The notes under the pieces are model-generated. The model searched no databases. It worked only from the letters and a program-made list of their open reading frames with translations, and was not told where the DNA came from. 32,000 nucleotides of DNA from Nitrospira sp. GTDB taxonomy: Bacteria > Nitrospirota > Nitrospiria > Nitrospirales > Nitrospiraceae. The position numbers and the translations under genes are program-made. Location of the stretch: positions 997,296 through 1,029,295 of the forward strand of contig CP060499.1 of assembly GCA_024760525.1 (NCBI GenBank), written 5' to 3'. This document shows, piece by piece, positions 2,330-32,000 of the stretch (within the stretch, counting starts at the first letter, position 1; every line of letters starts with the position of its first letter).

Positions 2330-3964
2330 ATGAGTTCAACACCAGGCAGCACACCGGCGCGCCAATTTAAGAAGCTCCTGATGTCCGAGCAGTTGGAATT
2401 CATCTGTGAAGCCCACAATGGTCTGAGCGCAAAAATAGTTCAAGAAGCCGGCTTCCGAGGTATTTGGGCCAGCGGCCTTTCCATCTCGGCGCAATTCGGT
2501 GTCCGCGACAACAACGAAGCCAGTTGGACCCAAGTCCTGGACAATCTGGAATTCATGTCCGATGCGACGACGATTCCGATTCTTCTCGACGGCGATACCG
2601 GATACGGCAACTTCAATAACATGCAGCGTCTCGTCCGTAAACTGGAGCAGCGCCGTATTGCCGCGGTCTGTATCGAGGACAAGCTTTTCCCCAAGACGAA
2701 TAGCTTTATCAAGGGGGACGCCCAACCGATGGCGGACATGCAAGAGTTTTGCGGCAAGATCAAGGCAGGCAAAGATGCCCAGACCGATCCGGACTTTTCC
2801 ATCATTGCCCGGGTGGAAGCATTTATCTGCGGCTGGGGGCTGGCGGAAGCTTTGCGGCGAGCCGAGGCCTATCGGCAGGCAGGTGCCGACGGCATCCTCA
2901 TTCATAGTGCGTTATCGGTACCGGATGAGATCCTGTCGTTCAAACAAGAATGGGGAAACCGATGCCCGGTCGTGATCGTGCCCACCAAATACTACGCCAC
3001 GCCCACCGATGTGTTTCGGCAGCATGGATTTTCCATGGTGATTTGGGCCAATCACATGCTGCGGGCCGCGGTGGCCGCCATGCAGAAAACGGCGAGGATT
3101 TTAAAAGAACAAGAACATCTCCTCTCCATTGAAGACAAGGTCGTGCCGGTTTCAGAAATCTTTCGCCTGCAAAATGCTGCGGAATTACAGGATGCTGAAG
3201 ACCGATACCTTCCCCGCGGCGCCGAAAACACGTCCGCCGTCGTGCTGGCCGCCTCCCGCGGGGAGGAACTCCGGGAGTTGACGGAACATCAGCCCAAGAC
3301 GATGGTGAACATTCAGGGCGCGCCGATTCTGTCTCACATCGTGGAGGCGTACAACGCCGTGGGGATCAAAGACATCACGGTCGTGCGCGGGTATAAAAAG
3401 GAAGCGGTGACCCTGCCGAACTTGACCTATCTCGACAACGATGACTTTGCTGAAACCGGTGAACTGGATTCCCTGGACAAAGCTCTCCGGGCGCGGAAAG
3501 GCCTGGCCAAGGACCTGATCGTTTCGTACGGTGACGTGCTGTTCAATAAATACATCCCTCAGGCGCTCTGTCAGGAAAAAGAAGACTTTGTGATCTTCGT
3601 GGATAGCGATTGGCAGAACCAAAGCAGCTATGCTCGCTTGGGCGGTTTTGCCGAATGCTCTTTGCCCAATTCAAAGAAGGCCTTTAACGCGAAGATCTAT
3701 CTCAAGCAATTGGGAGATACGGTTCCGAGAGAACACACTCATGGAGTCTGGATGGGTTTTCTGAAAACTTCTCCTGCTGGAGCCGTCCAGTTACAAACGA
3801 TTCTGACCGCAATGCTGGCCGATCCCGTCAATCGCAAAGCCGGCATCCCCCATCTGTTGCAAGAACTGCTAAGGCGTCAGCATCCGATTCGCGTGCTGTA
3901 TACGGTCGGCCACTGGCTTGATATCAACAGTCTCGATGACGTGGTTCAAGCAGGTAATTTTTGA
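2330..3964 (+). CDS. pepM: phosphoenolpyruvate mutase fused to a C-terminal nucleotidyltransferase (LicC/PntC-like) domain
   Basis: 544-aa ORF. The N-terminal ~290 aa carry PEP mutase/isocitrate-lyase superfamily motifs ('[10 protein letters not shown]', '[10 protein letters not shown]', 'CIEDKLFPK'). The C-terminal ~250 aa begin with an '[16 protein letters not shown]' sugar-nucleotidyltransferase-like glycine-rich loop. Confidence 0.85.
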
Positions 3965-3968
3965 CTTC

Positions 3969-3991
3969 TGCGCGCGTTTTACGCGCGCGCA
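3969..3991 (+). other. alternating-GC stem-loop in the pepM-ppd spacer
   Basis: tgCGCGCG-tttta-CGCGCGCgca forms a 7-8 bp pure G:C stem with a 5-nt loop, 5 nt after the pepM stop. No U-tract follows. It may be an intra-operon attenuator or an mRNA stability element. Confidence 0.45.
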
Positions 3992-4085
3992 CTCATCTCG
4001 TCATGATGGGGTCGCCGCCGGGTAATTCGGGATCGCCCCACTTGCAACGTATTCGTACTCAATCGTTCTCTATGGAGAAGAGTCC

Positions 4086-5219
4086 ATGCTGAACCCACAG
4101 GAATTTATTGAATGTCTGAAAGAGAATGGCGTTGAGTTTTTTACGGGAGTGCCGGATTCCCTGCTTAAAGATTTGTGTGCCTGCATCGCTCATACGAGTC
4201 GAACCGATCGGCACATCATCGCCGCGAATGAAGGCGGAGCCGTGGCTTTGGCACTGGGGTACCACTTGGCAACACGGAACATTCCCCTCGTCTATCTACA
4301 GAACTCCGGGTTGGGCAACGTCATCAATCCCCTTTTATCACTGGTTGATGAAGAGGTGTATTCGATTCCTATGCTGTTCGTCATTGGCTGGCGTGGCGAA
4401 CCGGGGTTTCACGATGAGCCTCAACACAAAAAGCAGGGTCGAGTGATGCGTCCCATGCTTGAGGCCATGGAGATTCCCGTTTCCGTGTTGGGGCCGGAAT
4501 TGGATCATGCGGCCACGATCGTGAAAGACGCACTTACCTATGTCCGAAAGACCAGCGGCCCCTATGCCCTCATCATCAAGCAAGGTACCTTTGGCACCTT
4601 TGTTGCGCCGCGGACTGAGAAAACGGAGTTCCCACTCACTCGGGAAGAGGCGATCCAGCAGGTGATCGATGCCCTGGAGCAGCGAGATGTGGTTATCTCT
4701 ACCACTGGCATGCCTTCTCGGGAAGTGTACGAATACAGAAGCAAAAGGGGTGACGGCCATCAGCGCGATTTCTTAACGGTTGGCGGCATGGGACATGCTT
4801 CTCAAATCGCGCTTGGCATTGCGCTTCAAAGACCTGAGCGCTCCGTCTATTGTCTCGATGGAGACGGCGCGCTTCTGATGCACATGGGGGCTCTGGCGCT
4901 CAATGGAACGCTCAAGCCCAGAAATTTTAAGCATATTATTCTGAACAATGGCGCCCATGATTCGGTCGGTGGTCAGCCGACAGTGGCACGGGATATTGAT
5001 ATTCTGGGCATTGCTCGTGCCTCTGCCTACGAACAGGTCCTGAGGGCTCAAACGAAGCAGGAACTCCAGTCGTGTCTGGAAGAGCTGAAACGCGCAATTG
5101 GTCCGAGCCTACTGGAAGTCTGCGTACGCCGCGGAGCGAGGAAGGATTTGGGCAGACCGGCCACCACGCCGGTTCAGAACAAGAACGCCTTCATGGAGTT
5201 TATCGAGCGCAACGGTTAG
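4086..5219 (+). CDS. ppd: phosphonopyruvate decarboxylase (thiamine diphosphate-dependent)
   Basis: 377-aa ORF. N-terminal TPP pyrimidine-binding domain ('FFTGVPDSLLKDL...NEGGAVALALGYHLA'). C-terminal TPP motif 'LDGDGALLMHMGALA...ILNNGAHDSVGGQ'. Its position directly after pepM is the canonical phosphonate arrangement. Confidence 0.85.
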   Translation: MLNPQEFIECLKENGVEFFTGVPDSLLKDLCACIAHTSRTDRHIIAANEGGAVALALGYHLATRNIPLVYLQNSGLGNVINPLLSLVDEEVYSIPMLFVIGWRGEPGFHDEPQHKKQGRVMRPMLEAMEIPVSVLGPELDHAATIVKDALTYVRKTSGPYALIIKQGTFGTFVAPRTEKTEFPLTREEAIQQVIDALEQRDVVISTTGMPSREVYEYRSKRGDGHQRDFLTVGGMGHASQIALGIALQRPERSVYCLDGDGALLMHMGALALNGTLKPRNFKHIILNNGAHDSVGGQPTVARDIDILGIARASAYEQVLRAQTKQELQSCLEELKRAIGPSLLEVCVRRGARKDLGRPATTPVQNKNAFMEFIERNG

Positions 5220-21969: not shown

Positions 21970-22794
21970 ATGGCATCACCTCAAGCAACTGCTGACAAAG
22001 GGTATGACATATCGCAGTGGTATGACTCGAAGCCGGTGAAGTTGGGCTGGCTGGCGATCCTGGGGATCGGGGTGTTTTGGGTGCTGTATCAACGGGCCTT
22101 CGGGTACTCGCACGGGTTAGACTCCATGACCCCGGAGTTCGATTCGGTGTGGATGGGGCTGTGGCGCTTTAACATTTTAGCGAACGCCGTGTTCTTTGCC
22201 GTGACGATCGGCTGGATTTGGGTGACGCGGGACCGGAACCTGGCGAACCTGGACCACAAGCTGGAGCTGAAGCGGTACTTTTACTGGATGGGGTGGCTGG
22301 TGTGCTACATCTGGGGCGTGTACTACGCGGGCAGCTATACGCTGGAGCAAGATGCGGCGTGGCACCAAGTGATCATCCGGGACACGAGCTTCACGGCGAG
22401 CCACATTGTGGCGTTCTACGGGACGTTCCCGTTGTACATCACGTGCGGGGTGGCGAGCTACCTGTATGCGCAGACGCGGTTGCCGCTGTACGCGCAGGCG
22501 ACGTCGTTCCCGCTCGTGGCGGCGGTGGTGGGGCCGATGTTCATCCTGCCGAACGTGGGGTTGAACGAGTGGGGGCATGCGTTCTGGTTCGTCGATGAAT
22601 TGTTCTCGGCCCCGTTGCACTGGGGCTTTGTGACGTTGGGGTGGTGCGGGTTGTTCGGGGCAGCGGGCGGGGTGGCGGCGCAGATCGTGAGCCGGATGTC
22701 GAATCTGGCGGACGTGATCTGGAACAACGCGCCGAAGAGCATCCTGGATCCGTTCCCCAGCCAAGTGGGCCCCGGGCACAAGACCGTGTACTGA
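21970..22794 (+). CDS. amoC: ammonia monooxygenase subunit C (CuMMO PmoC/AmoC family)
   Basis: 274 aa from ATG 21970, which has a consensus AAGGAGG 7 nt upstream. It aligns along its whole length with Nitrosomonas europaea AmoC as I recall it ('YDxSxWYDSK', 'YQRxFxYSHGxDSMxPEFDxVWMGLWR', '[15 protein letters not shown]', '[30 protein letters not shown]'). Both metal-site ligand patterns are intact: D-x3-H-x12-H and N-x3-H-x13-H. Confidence 0.95.
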
Positions 22795-22921
22795 CAGGAG
22801 CTGGTCCTGAGGAGTGACGGTCAATATCAGGGACGTCCAAAACGTAGCTTGTGCTGGAACGGCAGACCGGGTAGTCCGGATCCGCCGCTCCAGCCGGCTG
22901 GAATGACGGAGGATGTCAGTT

Positions 22922-23764
22922 ATGTTTAGAACCGATGAGATTATTAAGGCCTCGAAGTTGCCGCCGGAAGGCGTGGCGATGTCCAGGCACATCGACTACA
23001 TTTATTTCATTCCGATCTTGTTTGTGACCATCGTGGGCACGTTCCACATGCACTTCGACCTGCTGGCGGGGGACTGGGATTTCTGGATTGATTGGAAGGA
23101 TCGGCAGTGGTGGCCGATCGTGACGCCCGTCACCGCGATTACCTTTTGTGCGGCCCTGCAATATTACAATTGGGTGAACTATCGGCAGCCCTTTGGGGCG
23201 ACGATCACGATTCTGGCGCTGCTGGCCGGGAAGTGGGTGACGATCGTGGCCGCCTGGTGGTGGTGGTCGAACTATCCGTATAACTTCGTGATGCCGTCCA
23301 CCCTGCTGCCGAGCGCGCTGGTGCTGGACATCGTCTTGTTGTTGACCCGGAACTGGACGTTGACGGCGGTGATCGGGGCGTGGCTGTTTGCCGCGTTGTT
23401 CTATCCGACCAACTGGGCCATCTTCGCCTATAGCCATACGCCGCTCGTCATCGACGGCACCTTGCTGTCGTGGGCGGACTACATGGGCTTTGCGTATGTC
23501 CGGACCGGGACGCCGGAGTACATTCGGATGATCGAAGTGGGCTCGCTGCGGACGTTCGGCGGGCACAGCACGATGATCTCCTCGTTCTTCGCGGCCTTCG
23601 CGTCGTCGTTGATGTACATCCTGTGGTGGCAGTTCGGGAAGTTCTTCTGCACGTCCTACTTCTACCTGACGGATGACCGGCAGCGGACGACCAAAGTGTA
23701 CGATGTGTTCGCGTACGCCACGTTGGCGAACCAGGACAAGGCCAAAGTCGGAGGGAAAGCATGA
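22922..23764 (+). CDS. amoA: ammonia monooxygenase subunit A (CuMMO PmoA/AmoA family), comammox clade A-like
   Basis: 280 aa from ATG 22922. GGAGG lies 9 nt upstream of this ATG, whereas the alternative ATG at 22913 abuts the SD. It is homologous to N. europaea AmoA throughout ('FRTxEIxKAxKxPPE', '[24 protein letters not shown]', 'YRQPFGAT', '[23 protein letters not shown]'). The recalled comammox clade A amoA primer sites match exactly at 23165-23181 and 23564-23579. Confidence 0.95.
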
Positions 23765-23790
23765 ACGCCAAACACGCCTTCAAACGGTGA
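23761..23790 (+). pseudogene. amoB: possible 5' remnant of amoB (9 codons, then TGA TAA)
   Basis: This ATG overlaps the amoA stop (ATGA), which is where amoB would start. It encodes MNAKHAFKR*, resembling the recalled AmoB N-terminus of N. europaea (MGIKNLYKRG...) at K4, aromatic-7, K8 and R9. The rest of amoB is missing. ftsH starts 59 nt later. Confidence 0.35.
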
Positions 23791-23848
23791 TAAGAGCTTC
23801 ACGGAGATAGGCTATCTGCTCAGACAGATCTATTGTGAGAGGCTACTC

Positions 23849-25654
23849 GTGAAAAGCAAAGCACAAACCGTACTGTTTTGGATGGTGGTAGGCCTGTCCA
23901 TGGTATTTCTTCTCAACCTATGGAACATGCCGACGCGCGTGTCAGAGGAAGAAATTATTTTTAGCGATTTCATGGCGAAGCTCGACCAGGGCGACATCGA
24001 GAAGGTCATCATCAAGGGACATCATATCAGCGGCGTATTAAAAGATAGTTCCCGGCTCCGAACCTACGCGGCGGACTATCCCGATCTCGTCCAGGTGCTG
24101 CGAGAGAAGCATGTTCAGATCGAGGTCAAACCGCTCGACGAAAGCCCGTGGTACGTCCAATTTCTGATGACCTGGGGACCGTTCGTGCTCTTTCTGGGTC
24201 TGTTGTTGTTCTTCATGCGCCGGATGCAGGTTGGGAAGGAAGCTCTGTCCCTCGGGAAAAGCAAAGCCCGCATGCAGACGGATGAGCGGAAAAAGGTGAC
24301 GTTTTCCGATGTGGCGGGAATTGATGAAGCGAAAGAAGAAGTACAGGAAACGGTTGAATTTCTGAAAGACCCTCGAAGATTCCAGAAACTCGGCGGACGC
24401 ATTCCTAAGGGTGTGTTGGTCGTAGGCCCGCCGGGAACCGGGAAAACATTGTTGGCTAAAGCGATTGCCGGTGAGGCGGGAGTCCCCTTCTTCAGCATCA
24501 GCGGTTCGGATTTTGTGGAAATGTTCGTGGGGGTCGGGGCCTCTCGCGTTCGGGACATGTTCGAACAAGCGAAAAAGCATGCCCCCTGTATCATTTTTAT
24601 CGACGAGATCGACGCCGTCGGACGGTCACGGGGGGCGGGGCTTGGCGGCGGAAACGATGAACGTGAGCAAACGCTCAATCAGTTGCTGGTCGAAATGGAC
24701 GGATTCGATACGACGGAAGGTGTCATCCTGGTCGCAGCCACCAATCGGCCGGATGTGCTCGACCCGGCCTTGCTGAGGCCAGGTCGGTTCGACAGGCAAG
24801 TGGTGGTGAATCAGCCTGACCTCCGAGGCCGTGCGCAGATTCTGAACGTGCACACGAAGAAAGTGCCGGTTGCAGCCGATGTAGAACTGGAGAAGATCGC
24901 TCGAGGAACTCCCGGTTTCTCAGGCGCCGACTTGGAAAACTTGGTCAACGAGGCTGCGCTTTGGGCTGCTCGTCAGAACAAGAACGAAGTCGGGGCCGTA
25001 GACTTCGAAACGGCGAAAGACAAGATCATGATGGGCGCAGAGCGCAAGAGCATGATGCTTACAGACGAGGAAAAACGAGTCACCGCCTATCACGAGGCGG
25101 GCCATGCCTTGATGGCCAAACTGCTGCCGGGCACCGATCCAGTTCACAAAGTGTCCATCATTCCAAGAGGCCGCGCATTGGGTGTGACCATGCAGTTGCC
25201 GACCGACGATCGCCACAATTACTCCAAAGAGTTTTTGCGCGATAGGCTGGCGATTCTCATGGGCGGTCGAGTCGCGGAAGAACTGGTATTCAAACACGTC
25301 ACAACCGGAGCCGGCAACGATCTGGAGCGTGCAACTGATCTCGCGCGCAAGATGGTCTGCGAATGGGGCATGAGCGAAAAGCTGGGGCCGCTGACGTTCG
25401 GGCAGAAAGAGGAATCGATGTTTCTGGGACGCTCCTTTGGGGGCAGGCGTGATGTCAGTAGTGAAATGGCGCTGGAAATCGATCTGGAGATCAAGCGTCT
25501 TGTTACAGAAAGTTACGAGAGGGCCAAGCAAGTCCTCACCGAACAGATGGTGAGCTTGAAGGCGCTGGCGGCAGCACTCTTGGAAAAAGAGTCGCTGGAT
25601 GGGTCGGAAATCGACCGGATTATTCTACAGTCTTCTCCAGTCGCTTCTGCCTAA
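23849..25654 (+). CDS. ftsH: ATP-dependent zinc metalloprotease FtsH
   Basis: 601-aa ORF with a GTG start and GAGAGG upstream. Two TM helices, Walker A 'GPPGTGKT', Walker B 'IIFIDEID', SRH '[19 protein letters not shown]' and zinc motif 'HEAGHAL'. Confidence 0.95.
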
Positions 25655-25670
25655 TGCGATTGTGATGCGC

Positions 25671-25705
25671 ATACCGGCTCGCATTCCTGGAATGCGAGCC
25701 GGTAT
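25671..25705. terminator. perfect 17+17-nt inverted repeat between convergent ftsH and the carboxylase gene (candidate bidirectional terminator)
   Basis: ATACCGGCTCGCATTCC-t-GGAATGCGAGCCGGTAT is a perfect palindrome centred on 25688, giving about a 15-bp stem once a minimal loop is allowed. It sits in the 58-nt gap between two stop codons. There is no flanking U-tract on either side. Confidence 0.6.
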
Positions 25706-25712
25706 CGGTGGC

Positions 25713-28700
25713 TCACTCTTCCTGAATCACGAGCAACAGCTTTCCGGCGGGAACATGCTCTCGCTCCTGGCAATATAGCTGTTGCACAGTCCCATTCACC
25801 GGAGATTGGACCGTGAGCTCCATTTTCATCGATTCAAGAATAACTACCGGGCTTCCCGCAGTGACGCGCTGTCCGCTCGCCACGAGCAATTTCCACACAG
25901 TACCCGTTACGTGCGCAGTGATGGCGTGAGCCCCTTCGGGAAGATCGATCTCAGCTGATGGTTCTGCCGGGCCGGAGTCGGTGTCACTGATGTACTCCGC
26001 CTGACCACTGTTCCTCCAGCGCTCCCGCTCGGCTTCAAATGCAGCTTGCTGCTTGGTTTTGAACGCGCTGATCGAGGCGGCATTCTGTTGCAGGAACGTA
26101 TTGTACTGTTTCAGGCTGAAGGTCGTTTCTTCTACCTTCAACTTAAATCGTCCAGCTGTGAAGTCCTTGCGCAGCTCGTGCAGTTCGCTCCCGCTCACAG
26201 GATAGAAGCGAATCTGATCGAAAAAGCGCAGCAGCCACGGGTTGCCCTGCTTGAAATCGGCGGTTTGGCGATAGCGATTCCACATTTGCACGGTGCGTCC
26301 GACGAACTGATATCCGCCGGGGCCTTCCATGCCGTAGATGCACAGGTACGCGCCACCTATTCCCACCGCGTTCTCAGGAGTCCAGGTGCGCGCCGGGTTA
26401 TACTTCGTGGTCACAAGGCGGTGGCGGGGATCCAGCGGAGTCGCGACCGGCGCACCCAGATATACGTCCCCCAGCCCCAATACCAGATAGCTTGCCTCAA
26501 ATACGATACGTTGCACGTCTTCGACGCTGTCCAGCCCGTTGATACGACGGATAAACTCGATATTGCTCGGACACCACGGCGCATCGTTGCGTACGGACTG
26601 CATATATTTGTCGATGGCGACCTGTGTGGCCTCATCGTCCCATGAAAGCGGAAGATGCACGATGCGCGTCGGCACCTCCATTTCATCGACAGGGGGGAGA
26701 TTCTTCTCGGCACCCACGAGGATGTTGAGCAATCTGGCACGAGGCAATACTCGCGGCTGAAAATGAATCTGCAGAGACCGGATGCCGGGCGTCAGATCCA
26801 CGATTCCTTTCAGATGCTCCCTGTCGATTGTTTGTTGGAGCCATTCCATCAGGGCGTGCGCATGAAAGCGAAGATTGAGGTCGAGTATCGGCGGCCCATA
26901 CTCGATCAACAGATTTTCGTCCCCGGACTGGCGATACACGACCTGCATGTGCCGAGGACCTTCAGGAATATGATCCAAAATAGGCTGGTCCAGCAGGTCG
27001 GCTTCGGATGGCTTCGGGGTGATGTCTGGCTGCCGAAGACTTTGGATCATTACGCCCTGTGAGTGATCAAGCGCCAATGCGTGTTCTGCTGAAATCCGGC
27101 AGAAGCGTACGTGATCACCCGGCTTGAGCTGACCTATCTTCCAGAGATCGGCGCGGACGATCGAGGCGGGGCAGACGAAACCGCCGAGACTGGGACCATC
27201 AGGTCCCAATATCACCGGCATATCGCCGGTGAAAATCACCGCGCCAAGGGCATAGGCATTGTCGTGGATATTGGATGGGTGTAGACCTGCTTCGCCTCCG
27301 TCGTGGCGCGACCATTCGGGCTTGGGACCGATCAGACGTACGCCGGTGCGGCTGGAGTTGTGGTGGATTGCCCACTCGGTCTCAAAAAACATGCGGATAT
27401 CGTCATCAGAGAAAAACTCCGGCGCTCCGTGTGGGCCGTACAGCACGCGGATTTGCCAGTTATCGGTATAGTTCGGAATCAATTCCTGCGGCAGAGTGTG
27501 GGGGGTGTGGTCGTGCGTGGCCGCAATGTGCAGTAGGTCGCCACTGCGCAGAACGCGTCCGGCATGTCCACCGAACTGGCCGAGGGTGAAGGTGGCCTTG
27601 CTGCCAAGATAGGCAGGCACCTGAAAGCCGCCTTGCACGGCCAGATAAGCCCGGCAGCCGTGATTGCTGATTCGCCCGAACTGCAGCAATGCCCCTGCTT
27701 TGACCGCATGCGATTGCCATTGCGCCAATGGTTTGCCGTCCAGATGCATCTCGATCGATGCGCCGGTTGCGGCAATGACGCTGTCGCAGTTGAAACGAAG
27801 GGTCGGGCCGATAACAGTGATCTCGAGTCCGGCCTCATCCTGTCGGTTGTTGACCAGGCGATTGGCCAGACGGAATGCCAGATCATCCATCGGGCCTGAC
27901 GGCGGCACGCCGACTTGCCAATACCCCAGACGTCCTGGATAGTCCTGCACCGTCGTCTGCATTCCAGGGGTGAGCACCTCGATGGTCTCTGCGTGGTATC
28001 CAAATCCTTTGAGCACGCCCGTCGTGTACCGACCGCTACGGAACGCTGCACCGTGTAAGACTTGCTTGAGATAATTCAAATTCGTTTCAATGCCGTGCAG
28101 GGCGGTCTTATGGAGGGCTGTCGTCAGGCTTGCAATGGCTTGTTCACGCTCCGGCTCACGGATGATAATCTTGGCCAGCATCGGGTCATAGTACGGAGAG
28201 ACTTCGACACCACGCTCCACCCAGGTCTCGACACGTGCTTCCGATGGAAAGTCTGCGGCCGTGAGTGTGCCGCAGGACGGTTGAAAATCTTTCGCCGGAC
28301 TCTCGGCGTACACCCGTGCTTGAATGGCGACCCCTCGCGGTTGGATGTTGAGTGAATCCAGCGGTGGGAGATTCCCGGCAGCCTGCCGTACCATCCATTC
28401 CACCAGATCAATGCCGGTCACTTCTTCGGTCACACCGTGCTCGACCTGCAGACGCGTGTTGACCTCGAGGAAATAGAACTCGCTGCTGGAGGCATCGACA
28501 ATGTATTCCACCGTGCCGGCCGACTGATAATTGACCGCTTTCCCCAGGCGCGCGGCCGCGTCCAGCAGGGCTTGGCGCAAGGGCGGAGTCAGATTAGGAG
28601 CGGGGGTCTCTTCTATGACCTTCTGGTTGCGCCGTTGGACTGAGCAGTCACGTTCCCCTAGCGCGATCACTTTGCCCTTCCCGTCGCCGAAAATCTGAAC

Positions 28701-29327
28701 CTCAATGTGGCGGGCGTCTTCGACGTATTTTTCGAGAAACAAGCCGGCATCCTTAAAGTTGTTCTGTGCCAGGTATTTCACCGACTCGTACGCCTCGTTC
28801 AGTTCCTCTTTGTTCCGGCACAGACGCATGCCGATCCCGCCGCCGCCGGCTGTGCTTTTCAGCATGACGGGATAACCGATCTTTGCCGCCTCGGATACGG
28901 CGTGGTCGATGCTATCCAGCAGACCGGTCCCCGGAAGCAGCGGAACTTGATTCTGCATAGCCAGGGCGCGCGCCGTGTGTTTGAGACCGAAGGCGCGCAT
29001 CTGCTCCGGGCTGGGGCCGATAAAGGAAATGCCTTGGCCTGCGCACTGCTCGGCGAAATGTGCCTGCTCGCTGAGAAAACCATAGCCGGGATGAATGGCC
29101 TGTGCGCCGGTTCGTCTGGCAACATCCAAAATCTTGTCGGCGCGGAGATAGCTGTCCGCTGCGACTCCGCTGCCGATCCAATGAGCTTCATCAGCCTCTA
29201 CCACGTGCCGAGACAAGAGATCGGCGTCTGTATACACAGCGACGCTTTCCACCCCGATACGGCGCAGGGTACGGATGATACGGCAAGCAATGGTGCCGCG
29301 GTTGGCAATCAGTACCTTCTCAAACAT
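25713..29327 (-). CDS. urea carboxylase-family biotin enzyme, probably guanidine carboxylase
   Basis: 1204 aa from ATG 29327 ('[20 protein letters not shown]'). Domains: biotin carboxylase, KipA/KipI-type (allophanate hydrolase subunit 2 and 1-like) carboxyltransferase, and a C-terminal BCCP with biotinylation motif 'ILESMKMEL'. The 21 codons upstream of this ATG overlap the preceding gene and are probably not translated. Confidence 0.9.
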
Positions 29328-30006
29328 GCGCAATCCCTTTTCCGGCCGCCTCCCATACCAACAAGCGAATCGGCGTGGGATTGAAGGCATTACAGGGGTT
29401 ATTGAGCTGCGGGCAATTCGAGATCATCACGACGACGTCCATTTCAGCGCACATTTCGACATATTTGCCGGGCGCCGATACTCCGTCGACAAATTCAAGC
29501 CCGCCGGCGTCCGTCACCGGAACGTTCATGAAAAAGTTGATATTGCTGGGGAGATCGCGTTTGGTTAGGCCGAGTTGTTCACAAAGCGGATCGTGTGCCA
29601 AGGCATGGAGAAAACTATCTCGGCAGCTATGCATCGCATGCTTGTCCAGTGCATAACGAACTCTGTTGCTTTCCGACGCGCAGGCCCCGCCCAGCGTATC
29701 ATGACGCCCGCACGTGTCGGCGACGATCGTGAGCATGACGTTGCCGAAATTGGAATAGAGCTTGGTGCCGGTAGTCAAATACAGGCTTCTTTGCCGGCTG
29801 ATCGTGTCGGTGGCGCTATAGCGTTCCGGTGTATGAGCCGGGTTGAAGAACAGGGTATCGACCGCCTGGTTTCCTTCCAGATCGACAATGCGAAACGTCG
29901 CTCCTTTTTTTACCAGCTTGACCCACGGTTCGCCTGCGGGGCAGATCTCATCGACGACGGCATGCTCTGGATCAAGCCGGCTTTCGATCAGGTTGTGCAC
30001 GCTCAT
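29320..30006 (-). CDS. DUF1989 'urea carboxylase-associated' protein (carboxyguanidine deiminase subunit-like)
   Basis: 228-aa ORF. '[18 protein letters not shown]...YSATDTI...[13 protein letters not shown]...[16 protein letters not shown]' follows the DUF1989 pattern. It overlaps the carboxylase start by 8 nt and the upstream paralogue by 4 nt. Confidence 0.8.
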
Positions 30007-30734
30007 TCGACACCTCCCTTACAGGCATACAATCGTTGAGTGTGTTGGAGACCTCGCATATTCTCAGCCAAACCCATACATTCTGCGGTGGATCCAGCCG
30101 GTGTAGGGAACAGGGCTAAGCGGACTGCACCTGGACGGTAGACTTTGGATGGGTCGAGCGGGTGCGGGGCGGCGGACAGCACAACCAGCGTATCCATTTC
30201 GAAGCTCAGATCGACGGAGTCGCCGGGTCTTCTGTGATCTTCCTTAAAAGACAGTTCTCCGGATGAATCAGCGGTGATCTTACTGAAAAAATTAATGTTG
30301 GAGACGACATCCCGCTTCCCTAACCCCCATTTGCCCAGCTCGATGAGCATTCCGTCCAGCCCGCTCCGATACATCTGATTCCGATGCTCCTGATATCGGG
30401 CGACACCGTATTGCTTCTCTATCTGCTCGGCATCACTCAGTCCGCATGCGGTGTCATGCCAACCGGTCGTGTCTGCGGTAATGAAACAGAAAATGCGCCC
30501 CATATCGGAATAGCAGGCGTGTCCTTTGGTCAATCGGAAGGTATGTTGACACTTCAGCGTATCCGCCATGTTGTACCGTTCCAATTTCTCTTCACGGTTA
30601 AACAACAGCACGGCGGCGTTGGCTCTGCCTTCGACGTCTTCCAGCCGCAGGGTCGTGCCACGGCGCACAATACCGGACCAATGACAACCTCCGGGGACGG
30701 TTTCTTCCCAGAGCAAGGAATGAGCGTGATTCAT
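30003..30734 (-). CDS. DUF1989 'urea carboxylase-associated' protein, second paralogue (carboxyguanidine deiminase subunit-like)
   Basis: ORF 30003-30749. I prefer the ATG at 30734 ('[11 protein letters not shown]') because GGAGGAG lies 6 nt upstream of it. '[18 protein letters not shown]...YNMADTLK...[13 protein letters not shown]...[15 protein letters not shown]' parallels the downstream paralogue. Confidence 0.8.
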
Positions 30735-30765
30735 GTGTGACTCCTCCATAACGTAAGGCGATTGA

Positions 30766-31998
30766 TTAATTCTTGCGGAGACGGTTGGTCAGCACGTACA
30801 GCGTCGTCACTCCCAGGATGCTTCCGAGGACCAGCGGGACAGCCCAGAGTTGCCACCAGGGAGCATCGGGCGAGGTTGCATAGGGGCGCGGCCATGCAAT
30901 ATTGATGAATTCGAATACTGACCAGACGAAGGCGACCGTATTGATGAGCAACCCCCAGGCGCCTAGTTTCAGCTGACCCAATGAGGGATCCCAACGGCCT
31001 GTGAGACGGGTAAAGAGTCCAACGCCCGTCGTCATCGCAAACATGGCGTACAACCCGCCCGTGCCGAACGCCAGCACCGTCGCAACTGCTTCGTCGTTGA
31101 GTCCGAAGAGCAATCCGAGCGTCGCGAGCAGAACCGTGAACATCACGGCGTTATGCGGAGCTCCGGCAGCGGTGACCCGACTCAGGAGGGCCGGCATACT
31201 CCCCTCACGCGCCATGGAAAATACAATACGGGATGTGTATTGCACCATGGATGACCCGCAAGCCAGAAAGGCAATCATGACAATCGTCAGGAAAGGGGTT
31301 TCGGCCCACGCTCCGAAGTTGTCGACGATCACGGGGGTGACGGGATCGGACGCGGCGCTCGTATGGACCAATGTGTCACGACTGAAGCTGAGGGTGAGCG
31401 CGGAAGAGTTGAAGAGCACCACGCTTCCCACCATGCAGAGAGACAAAAAGATCGCGCGCGGCACCATTCGTTTGGGATCGTGGGTTTCTTCGGCAATGGT
31501 TGAGCAGGCATCGAAGCCGATGAACGCCCAGCCGGAAATGGCAAGTGCCGCCAGAAACGCGGCGGTCTGGCTGGGGGCGGTTCCCGTCCCGAGATGCGCG
31601 AACAGTTCTGAGAATTCATGTTGCCGGAAAAAGAAAAACAGCAGCAGCGCGACACCGAACGAGCCGACGATTTCCGCATAGACACCCAGGGAAATAAGGA
31701 ACTTGAATATCGAGACGTGGACCAGGTTGAGGATGGTGCACACCAGCATGAACACCGCGCCCCATATCACGAGGCTGACTCCTGTTCCACCTCCTGATCC
31801 GAAAAAAATGGCCAGCCAGACGCCGCCGGTGTAGGCGGTGGTGGTGAGCATCGCAATCGTGGAGCTGACATAGATGGCTCCGGCATATGTCCCTGTGGTG
31901 GGGCCTCCCAGCTGCCTCGCCCATTTGTACGCTCCACCCGCGATCGGAATCTGAGAGGACAGCTCCGCATACACGGTTGCCACCAGCAGCTGCATCAC
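30766..31998 (-). CDS. APC-superfamily amino acid/polyamine-type permease (5' end outside the window)
   Basis: 410 aa visible, all polytopic membrane sequence ('YAELSSQIPIAGGAYKW', many Gly/Ala-rich TM helices). The ORF runs off the window edge, so it is N-terminally truncated here. It lies 16-31 nt upstream of the DUF1989 pair on the same strand. Confidence 0.75.
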   Translation of the reverse strand: MMQLLVATVYAELSSQIPIAGGAYKWARQLGGPTTGTYAGAIYVSSTIAMLTTTAYTGGVWLAIFFGSGGGTGVSLVIWGAVFMLVCTILNLVHVSIFKFLISLGVYAEIVGSFGVALLLFFFFRQHEFSELFAHLGTGTAPSQTAAFLAALAISGWAFIGFDACSTIAEETHDPKRMVPRAIFLSLCMVGSVVLFNSSALTLSFSRDTLVHTSAASDPVTPVIVDNFGAWAETPFLTIVMIAFLACGSSMVQYTSRIVFSMAREGSMPALLSRVTAAGAPHNAVMFTVLLATLGLLFGLNDEAVATVLAFGTGGLYAMFAMTTGVGLFTRLTGRWDPSLGQLKLGAWGLLINTVAFVWSVFEFINIAWPRPYATSPDAPWWQLWAVPLVLGSILGVTTLYVLTNRLRKN

Positions 31999-32000
31999 CA

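Follow-up and report, generated by a model that had tools for sequence, protein, structure and literature searches.

A guanidine-riboswitch-associated carboxylase operon with isoleucine at the specificity position in a clade A comammox Nitrospira

That complete nitrifiers can grow on guanidine was discovered recently and has been ascribed to a Ni-guanidinase, and an ATP-dependent carboxylase route was previously reported in just two clade B comammox genomes. The locus described here, part of a stretch of 32,000 nucleotides (the window), places next to amoCA an operon with the gene order of a guanidine carboxylase (GC) operon, in which the carboxylase carries an unexpected residue and allophanate hydrolase (AH) is missing. 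The question it raises is which substrate such an operon serves and how its pathway ends. The supply of AMO by guanidine in nitrifiers, with the riboswitch, the APC permease and the GC operons involved, has been published before (Palatinszky et al. 2024, PMC11410670); the initial annotation had put forward the same idea for this DNA, where it is not new.

Locus, control region and host

The features of the locus, in window coordinates, are the following.

21970-22794, plus strand: amoC (NF041641, 340.4 bits, above cutoff)
22922-23764, plus strand: amoA (NF041557, 349.3 bits, above cutoff)
23849-25654, plus strand: ftsH paralogue with FtsH_ext, AAA and Peptidase_M41 domains
25671-25705, no strand: inverted-repeat hairpin of 16 perfect bp lying between the stops of the carboxylase and ftsH genes
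25713-29327, minus strand: biotin-dependent carboxylase of the urea/guanidine carboxylase family, 1204 aa, ATG at 29327
27234-27236, minus strand: ATT codon for Ile698 of the carboxylase, equivalent to K. lactis Asn1330
29320-30006, minus strand: cgdB-type DUF1989 gene (UAAP2), 228 aa
30003-30734, minus strand: cgdA-type DUF1989 gene (UAAP1), 243 aa (248 aa from the alternative ATG at 30749)
30766 to past 32000, minus strand: APC-superfamily permease, predicted guanidine importer

The packing of four co-directional genes described initially is found in all its elements, with overlaps, read off the sequence, of 4 nt between cgdA and cgdB and of 8 nt between cgdB and the carboxylase start (ATGTTTGA). 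These overlapping starts suggest that translational coupling may be maintained. The ftsH gene points towards the operon and runs in the same direction as amoCA, which is a second copy without amoB; 1.95 kb separate the stop of amoA from that of the carboxylase. As was also recognized at the outset, no AH gene follows the carboxylase, and a hairpin and then ftsH occupy its place. The hairpin is strong (-31 kcal/mol, z = -5.5; 0 of 200 shuffles fold equally well), lacks a U-tract and received no call there from a simple terminator scan; it is likely a bidirectional transcript end for the carboxylase and ftsH.

The upstream part of the locus was read outside the window, on contig L001, which shares 8,250 nt with the window without a single mismatch and extends it by ~8 kb. 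The initial annotation had located the 5′ region of the operon past the window edge, and the permease is indeed cut there, since the PF13520 match of its windowed part (8.4e-37) begins at profile position 45. The complete permease (L001:7805-9241, 478 aa) starts 202 nt outside the window. A riboswitch scan inside the window gave no match; an Rfam scan of the extension revealed, just past the edge, the guanidine riboswitch that had been predicted for the unseen region. This guanidine-I riboswitch (RF00442, L001:7571-7675) scores 92.9 bits against a gathering score of 63, covers the full length of the model and is co-oriented with the operon, ~130 nt ahead of the permease ATG. A canonical terminator was not found in its expression platform, and by analogy with its family it would act as an ON switch. 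The guanidine-I class is guanidine-specific and discriminates against methylguanidine (PMC12508155). A guanidine-I riboswitch is also found in every related Nitrospira and AOB locus tested, with the exception of L012.

The host belongs to the clade A comammox Nitrospira, with Ca. N. kreftii and strain BO4 among its relatives. Its AmoA clusters at 90% identity with that of Ca. N. kreftii, the exact protein having two accessions per genome. Database records list the operon proteins under Nitrospira sp. or BO4; the exact carboxylase is UVT16896.1 (labelled Nitrospira sp.), the exact CgdA is UVT16898.1 and the BO4 carboxylase is MDK2743068.1, in a locus with the same ftsH neighbour.

The upstream and downstream halves of the operon seem to differ in origin. 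The segment between riboswitch and permease is conserved, with a hairpin and a uORF of 25-26 codons, as in the comammox guanidinase operon (N. inopinata type: guanidine-I riboswitch, APC permease, Ni-guanidinase), and the permease is 88% identical to the Nitrospira permease of L092, which precedes a guanidinase. Judged by such similarities, leader and permease are of the native comammox guanidinase-operon type. In contrast to that operon, the window has cgdA-cgdB-carboxylase in place of the guanidinase, which implies an ATP-dependent route. An 88% relative (L007) has both: the same cassette is followed directly, after 28 nt, by a guanidinase with the T/H/W signature and its own SD, within the same riboswitch-controlled operon. 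The window operon can thus be described as an apparent mosaic of a native riboswitch-leader-permease part and a cgdAB-carboxylase part of the type found in Nitrosomonadaceae and clade B Nitrospira.

The DUF1989 pair and the carboxylase

The substrate of CgdAB is carboxyguanidine. The two DUF1989 proteins of the window are adjacent paralogues, each above its own equivalog cutoff, as expected of this pair: CgdA matches PF09347 at 1.3e-60 and TIGR03425 with 321.3 bits (cutoff 205.95), and CgdB matches PF09347 at 2.9e-67 and TIGR03424 with 334.9 bits (cutoff 284.7). The cgdA gene comes first, like cgdA of N. multiformis. No lineage-specific change affects the conserved columns of CgdA, and those of CgdB are kept except for Q36A and L194M; the last five residues of CgdB, GIAHV, are specific to the lineage with Ile698 and create the 8-nt overlap with the carboxylase.

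The carboxylase contains, in order, the BC, CT A-D and BCCP domains (Pfam), with SMKM at residues 1166-1169 and K1168 as the biotinyl-Lys. It aligns over its full length with K. lactis urea carboxylase 3VA7 (1203 bits), the conserved catalytic residues D954, K975 and Y998 corresponding to K. lactis D1584, K1605 and Y1628. Against TIGR02712 it scores 1923.8 bits (cutoff 1303.85) over positions 1-1201, in a model that does not separate guanidine from urea carboxylase activity (PMC11410670). The two activities are told apart by Asp (GC) versus Asn (urea carboxylase) at K. lactis position 1330, or TIGR02712 position 701, and the published criterion for GC also requires Asp at K. lactis 1584, or TIGR02712 position 956 (Palatinszky et al. 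2024, PMC11410670). It is the Asp/Asn difference that reportedly dictates substrate specificity (PMC12186494). The second Asp is present as D954, in a column where all 135 sequences have Asp, and the association with the CgdA/CgdB pair is found immediately upstream, in overlapping genes. At position 1330, the alignment to 3VA7 gives neither Asp nor Asn but Ile698, with no nearby gaps and with D954 opposite D1584 as register control. The guanidine preference of the enzyme is therefore not secured.

Among 135 close homologues, this column contains Asp in 127 (N. multiformis included), Ile in six and Asn in two. In 150 diverse representatives of the family, Ser (9), Met (4) and Val (3) also occur, so that the number of specificity classes may exceed two. 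Ile698 occurs only in a single Nitrospira lineage, which is monophyletic with 100/100 bootstrap support and joins the Asp-type Nitrospira group as its sister in an NJ tree (81/100); the residue is encoded by ATT in the window versus GAY in the Asp-type Nitrospira genes. The phylogenetic check suggested initially places the carboxylase inside the Asp-type radiation of Nitrosomonadaceae and Nitrospira, apart from the Asn-type urea carboxylases, at 71-79% identity to the Asp-type enzymes of Nitrosospira, Nitrosomonas and clade B Nitrospira. Twenty changes are specific to the Ile-type carboxylases, D857Q among them, and Asp to Ile698 is the most radical. The early assignment as a guanidine carboxylase is thus upheld by gene content, gene order and grouping with Asp-type enzymes, but not by the residue at position 1330.

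The permease, cgdA, cgdB and carboxylase genes are under purifying selection. Comparison of the window with its 88% relative gives dN/dS values of 0.13, 0.17, 0.10 and 0.10, respectively, with 0.105 in the CT domain of the Ile-type carboxylases and a similar 0.12-0.13 in Asp-type pairs.

The missing hydrolase and the known operons

Searches by tblastn (E <= 1e-3) in the window and its 8 kb upstream extension, ~40 kb in all, gave no homologue of AH or guanidinase; of a complete pathway of GC, CgdAB and AH, the AH component is thus lacking at the locus. Upstream as well as downstream, the absence of AH reported in the initial annotation holds, but it is not special to this operon, being common to every Nitrospira version seen. 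Among the best 120 relatives of an AOB AH, none carries the name Nitrospira. An AH right after GC is the AOB pattern, present in about half of 80 genome loci. Without AH in the operon, allophanate would be completed elsewhere.

Published GC operons have the order riboswitch-permease-cgdAB-GC-AH in AOB and are without AH in two clade B comammox genomes (PMC11410670). The AOB operon of Nitrosospira multiformis (ABB74243-ABB74247; PMC11410670) shares with the window the riboswitch, APC permease, cgdA, cgdB and carboxylase in identical order, and AOB proteins are 71-77% (carboxylase), 72-78% (permease) and 76-83% (CgdB) identical to those of the window. It differs by an AH straight after the carboxylase, where the window has the hairpin and ftsH, by Asp at the specificity position instead of Ile, and by its host, which here is Nitrospira.

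The clade B operons, GCA_003135435 palsa_1310 (L012) and GCA_013140715, are the only two comammox cases reported. Like the window they belong to Nitrospira and have the same four genes, their carboxylases being 78-79% identical to that of the window and its sister group in the tree. For these genomes, AH is neither in the operon nor recorded elsewhere, and urease is present, so that a pathway devoid of AH has a precedent. Unlike the window, they retain Asp (GAY versus ATT) and have a gap of ~50 nt between cgdB and the carboxylase instead of the 8-nt overlap, with a CgdB of 223 versus 228 aa. Their permeases are 78-80% identical to that of the window, versus 88% for the permease of the clade A guanidinase operon. 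Urea carboxylase / urea amidolyase of K. lactis (PDB 3VA7, 5I8I) resembles the window enzyme in domain architecture and catalytic residues, but has Asn1330 and a fused or partnered AH, in contrast to Ile698, no AH, and the CgdAB and guanidine riboswitch context of the window. What is new here is the clade A host, Ile698 at the specificity position and the hybrid relative with both cassette and guanidinase.

Substrate and significance of the operon

With moderate confidence, the locus is read as a guanidine-inducible operon for uptake and degradation in a clade A comammox Nitrospira. The guanidine-I riboswitch found upstream would switch on the leader, permease, cgdA, cgdB and carboxylase. Guanidine would be imported by the APC permease and converted by the biotin carboxylase, with ATP and bicarbonate, into carboxyguanidine, from which CgdAB, as suggested by orthology, would produce allophanate and NH3. 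Allophanate may then be completed by an unlinked hydrolase, or decarboxylated to urea and passed to urease, and the freed ammonia would reach assimilation and AMO. An energy-supply role is not assured, given that AOB with a full GC pathway did not grow on guanidine alone (PMC11410670).

It is possible, if rather unlikely, that the specificity of the carboxylase has changed. The replacement of Asp by Ile would have removed the carboxylate that pairs with the guanidinium group, and the enzyme would act on another amidine, a guanidine derivative or an amide, or with relaxed selectivity, beside a guanidinase-based route for free guanidine and without duplicating it. Several observations point in this direction: Ile698 is confined to one lineage and kept over 12% protein divergence under purifying selection; the change from GAY to ATT takes two nucleotide substitutions and is hence no drift polymorphism; and in L007 the cassette shares an operon with a guanidinase, which would make plain redundancy odd. 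Against it stand the canonical guanidine-I riboswitch, of a class that rejects methylguanidine, the conservation of CgdAB under selection, and the lack of an evident compensating or pocket-remodelling set among the lineage changes. Still more tentatively, the Ile698 enzymes may form a new, recently derived specificity class, which would have arisen from an Asp-type GC after insertion of the cassette into a native clade A riboswitch-permease-guanidinase operon. Their substrate would be guanidine-related but not free guanidinium, or their selectivity would be deliberately altered, in an additional, ATP-driven route that would supplement guanidinase and finish via urea and urease, not via AH.

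A true urea carboxylase for ATP-dependent urea use is very improbable. The score above the NCBIfam 'urea carboxylase' equivalog cutoff and the database names that say urea carboxylase would favour it, but TIGR02712 pools both activities, Asn is missing at 1330, the required AH partner is absent over ~40 kb, and the gene is flanked by CgdAB and placed under a guanidine riboswitch. The enzyme also nests with the Asp-type, the sole Asn-type genome locus retrieved (L091) being a UC-AH fusion at 62% identity. Equally hard to sustain is a decaying remnant, deprived of its final enzyme (AH or guanidinase) and of the specificity residue, whose chemistry is no longer useful: AH and the signature Asp are indeed gone, as is, in the window lineage, the guanidinase present in the 88% relative, but the ORFs are all intact in at least eight independent assemblies, dN/dS is 0.10-0.17, riboswitch and catalytic residues are intact, and the overlapping starts point to coupling that is kept.

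For the biology of complete nitrifiers, the locus reveals a clade A lineage, including the cultivated enrichment Nitrospira sp. BO4, that has the cassette in the place of guanidinase, with riboswitch and permease unchanged in type. How the Nitrospira versions, consistently without AH, complete the breakdown of allophanate is a further question. Surveys that demand Asp at position 1330 would miss the pathway in Ile-type genomes. Use of guanidine by the Ile enzyme would show that the accepted Asp/Asn rule does not cover all cases; an inability to use it would imply that nitrifiers draw nitrogen and energy from a substrate not recognized before.

Operon anatomy and genomic setting

The operon consists of four co-directional genes on the minus strand (25713-32000) that overlap by 4 nt and by 8 nt, the latter overlap being ATGTTTGA, as had been described in the initial annotation. 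Its features are the following.

30766 to beyond 32000, minus strand: APC permease
30003-30734, minus strand: cgdA, DUF1989 protein 1, 243 aa (248 aa from 30749); TIGR03425/UAAP1, 321 bits (cutoff 206)
29320-30006, minus strand: cgdB, DUF1989 protein 2, 228 aa; TIGR03424/UAAP2, 335 bits (cutoff 285)
25713-29327, minus strand: carboxylase, 1204 aa, with BC, CT subdomains A-D and BCCP; TIGR02712, 1924 bits (cutoff 1304)
25671-25705: perfect 16-bp hairpin, 7 nt past the carboxylase stop; -31 kcal/mol, z = -5.5

The 243-aa version of CgdA carries the start on record, and an exact protein look-up of the 248-aa version returned no record. Since the Pfam match of the permease starts at profile position 45, its 5′ end is missing from the window. 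On the other side of the operon, the noted succession of a strong hairpin and a convergent ftsH (23849-25654) is present, the stop of ftsH coming next after the hairpin. The latter has no U-tract and a simple terminator scan gave no useful call. Both amoC and amoA score above their NCBIfam cutoffs, and the proposed proximity of about 2 kb to amoCA holds, with 1.95 kb between the amoA end and the carboxylase stop.

The exact proteins are deposited at NCBI as UVT16894-UVT16899 under the label "MAG: Nitrospira sp.", on a contig of 4.21 Mb. The same operon with the same synteny occurs in the cultivated enrichment Nitrospira sp. BO4, whose carboxylase is 96% identical. The AmoA of the window shares a 90%-identity cluster with that of Ca. 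Nitrospira kreftii, a clade A comammox organism, and the whole 32-kb window contains no amoB. Two genomes each have two NCBI accessions for the exact AmoA, which implies a second, identical copy of amoCA; in public assemblies, namely contig L001 and BO4, the sequence breaks right at this copy. The amoC-amoA pair is followed, 85 nt on, by the co-directional ftsH paralogue (21970-25654 in all), whose 601-aa product is recorded from Logan assemblies only. Because amoA (UVT16895) and the carboxylase (UVT16896) have consecutive NCBI accessions, which leaves no number for ftsH between them, this gene may have been treated as a pseudogene or called differently in the deposited annotation. Elsewhere in the window (2330-5219), a PEP mutase-nucleotidyltransferase fusion followed by a TPP-dependent, phosphonopyruvate decarboxylase-like enzyme looks like a phosphonate biosynthesis pair.

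Riboswitch and leader beyond the window edge

Exact matches to CgdB and the carboxylase are also encoded on public contigs, among them L001, which is identical to the window over an 8,250-nt overlap and runs 8 kb further upstream. It carries the complete permease (478 aa), confirming that the 5′ region of the operon lies past the window edge. A full-length guanidine-I riboswitch aptamer is located ~130 nt before the permease ATG (RF00442, 92.9 bits; gathering score 63), where a guanidine riboswitch had been predicted before this region was in view; an Rfam scan of the window itself returned nothing, as the riboswitch sits past its edge. Farther upstream on L001 are a deaminase with MafB19-like and dCMP/cytidine deaminase Pfam domains, an ECF sigma/anti-sigma pair and a radical-SAM cluster.

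The leader comprises the aptamer, a CAUGUAC-N4-GUACAUG hairpin, the motif GCCUUCU and a uORF of 25-26 codons with an AGGAG Shine-Dalgarno sequence. The GCCUUCU motif is complementary to the AGGAG(G) of the uORF, whose stop overlaps the permease ATG and whose peptide reads MH[LF]HSI..LS.PDQ.DLL...

L001:7676-7815 (window-equivalent 32192-32331): expression platform, also in L007 (contig of an 88% relative), L092 (a Nitrospira permease-guanidinase locus), L011, L043 and L010

The whole leader is kept across guanidinase-type and carboxylase-type Nitrospira loci, and the conservation of its platform ahead of both operon types suggests translational coupling or control, not a classical terminator. 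Simple promoter and terminator scans of the leader gave nothing useful, and its MFE fold is not significant (z = -1.65). Guanidine-I riboswitches reject methylguanidine (PMC12508155), and this compound is therefore down-weighted as inducer. In the clade B operon of Nitrospira palsa_1310 (L012:1-1396, GCA_003135435), no guanidine-I match at gathering score is found within 1.4 kb upstream.

Probable mosaic origin and the end of the pathway

The permease of the window is 88% identical to the Nitrospira permease of L092, which precedes a guanidinase; its identity to the permeases of other carboxylase operons is only 78-80%. A hybrid operon exists in the 88% relative (L007:6885-14801; ENA ERZ2606016 NODE_284), in the order guanidine-I riboswitch, permease, cgdA, cgdB, Ile-type carboxylase and guanidinase. 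This last gene, 28 nt past the carboxylase and with its own Shine-Dalgarno sequence, encodes a 381-aa arginase-family protein that has the Thr/His/Trp guanidinase signature and scores under the agmatinase cutoffs. The simplest reading of these arrangements is that a cgdAB-carboxylase cassette was inserted behind a native permease, and that the guanidinase would since have gone from the locus in the lineage of the window. Transposases and toxin-antitoxin genes lie downstream of the L007 operon. At another locus, L010:6302-11615 (GCA_945860135.1), a guanidine-I riboswitch and a permease are followed directly by an Asp-type carboxylase, with neither cgdA/cgdB nor allophanate hydrolase (AH) in the flank.

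The carboxylase had been noted to lack a following AH gene, and tblastn indeed detected neither AH nor guanidinase in the window, L001 or the BO4 locus. AH comes directly after the carboxylase in the loci of betaproteobacterial ammonia oxidizers (AOB) and in most of the other relatives, some Nitrosomonas loci being without it, whereas it is missing from all Nitrospira loci examined, Asp-type and Ile-type alike. The matches listed in a search for AH homologues were of Nitrosomonadaceae type only. Allophanate can decarboxylate non-enzymatically, and the obvious candidate for the end of the pathway is decarboxylation to urea with subsequent hydrolysis by urease, an unlinked AH being an alternative candidate.

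Ile698 and the substrate of the carboxylase

Guanidine carboxylases (GC) have been defined by Asp at positions 1584 and 1330 of the K. lactis enzyme (Palatinszky et al. 2024, PMC11410670), and according to a review, whether the 1330 site holds Asp or Asn appears to dictate specificity for guanidine or urea, respectively (PMC12186494). In an ungapped alignment, N1330 of K. lactis urea carboxylase (UC; 3VA7) corresponds to Ile698 of the window carboxylase, and D1584 aligns with D954, which verifies the numbering offset. Of the query and 134 close homologues, 127 have Asp in the 1330 column, 2 have Asn and 6 have Ile, the six being the query, four relatives at ~96% identity, BO4 among them, and a fifth relative at 88%. 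Of 80 listed species-representative genome loci, which are without the window's own lineage, 78 encode Asp, one encodes Cys and one Asn, this sole Asn case being a UC-AH fusion. When 241 million JGI metagenome records were scanned for DNA coding for GAVIFTGDM, a single contig turned up, again of this lineage. Among 150 diverse 50%-cluster representatives, Asn (61), Asp (50), Ser (9), Met (4) and Val (3) are found at this position, and none has Ile; at the level of sequence, the Asp/Asn dichotomy covers less than the whole family.

The Ile clade is monophyletic (100/100 NJ bootstraps) and sister to the Asp-type Nitrospira group (81/100). Its codon, ATT versus GAY in Asp-type genes, implies two substitutions. 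The lineage has 20 changes of its own at columns that are at least 90% conserved in other homologues, and D698I stands out as the most radical. Among side observations, a Methylomirabilota MAG (L069) has Cys at the specificity position and the gene order GC-AH-cgdA-cgdB, and Val, Met and Ser occur there in other subfamilies (representatives P0446, P0457 and P0464).

The window carboxylase keeps D954, K975, Y998 and the biotinyl-Lys; K975 corresponds to K. lactis K1605, which has been proposed as the general base (PMC5770610). When the window is compared with the 88% relative, dN/dS is 0.10 for the carboxylase (0.105 for its CT domain), 0.17 for cgdA, 0.10 for cgdB and 0.13 for the permease, values that match those of Asp-type pairs (0.12-0.13). 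Lineage-specific changes at conserved columns are absent from CgdA and limited to Q36A and L194M in CgdB. Judged by these measures, the carboxylase is intact apart from Ile698, and it is under selection.

A carboxylase with shifted specificity is a serious rival explanation, to which Ile698 in a gene under selection and the guanidinase within the same operon of the 88% relative lend weight; it is opposed by the class specificity of guanidine-I riboswitches and by the conservation of CgdAB, and on these two grounds guanidine is favored as the physiological input. The identification as a guanidine carboxylase stands in part: the cgdAB-carboxylase set, the riboswitch and the nesting next to the Asp-type Nitrospira group speak for it, but the residue at the specificity position is Ile instead of Asp. 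Because the defining Asp at 1330 was looked for and Ile was found, the label for this 1204-aa enzyme is provisional.

Most comammox genomes carry operons with a guanidine-I riboswitch, an APC permease and a guanidinase, while the ATP-dependent GC pathway (permease, cgdA, cgdB, GC and AH) has been found in AOB, and GC genes in only two comammox genomes, both of clade B, without AH and with urease (PMC11410670). With these riboswitch/guanidinase and GC operons of nitrifiers on record, the concept behind the finding is already published. The present locus is best read, from its predicted gene products and riboswitch, as a guanidine-riboswitch-controlled operon for ATP-dependent guanidine degradation in a clade A comammox organism, and as a variant of the published system.
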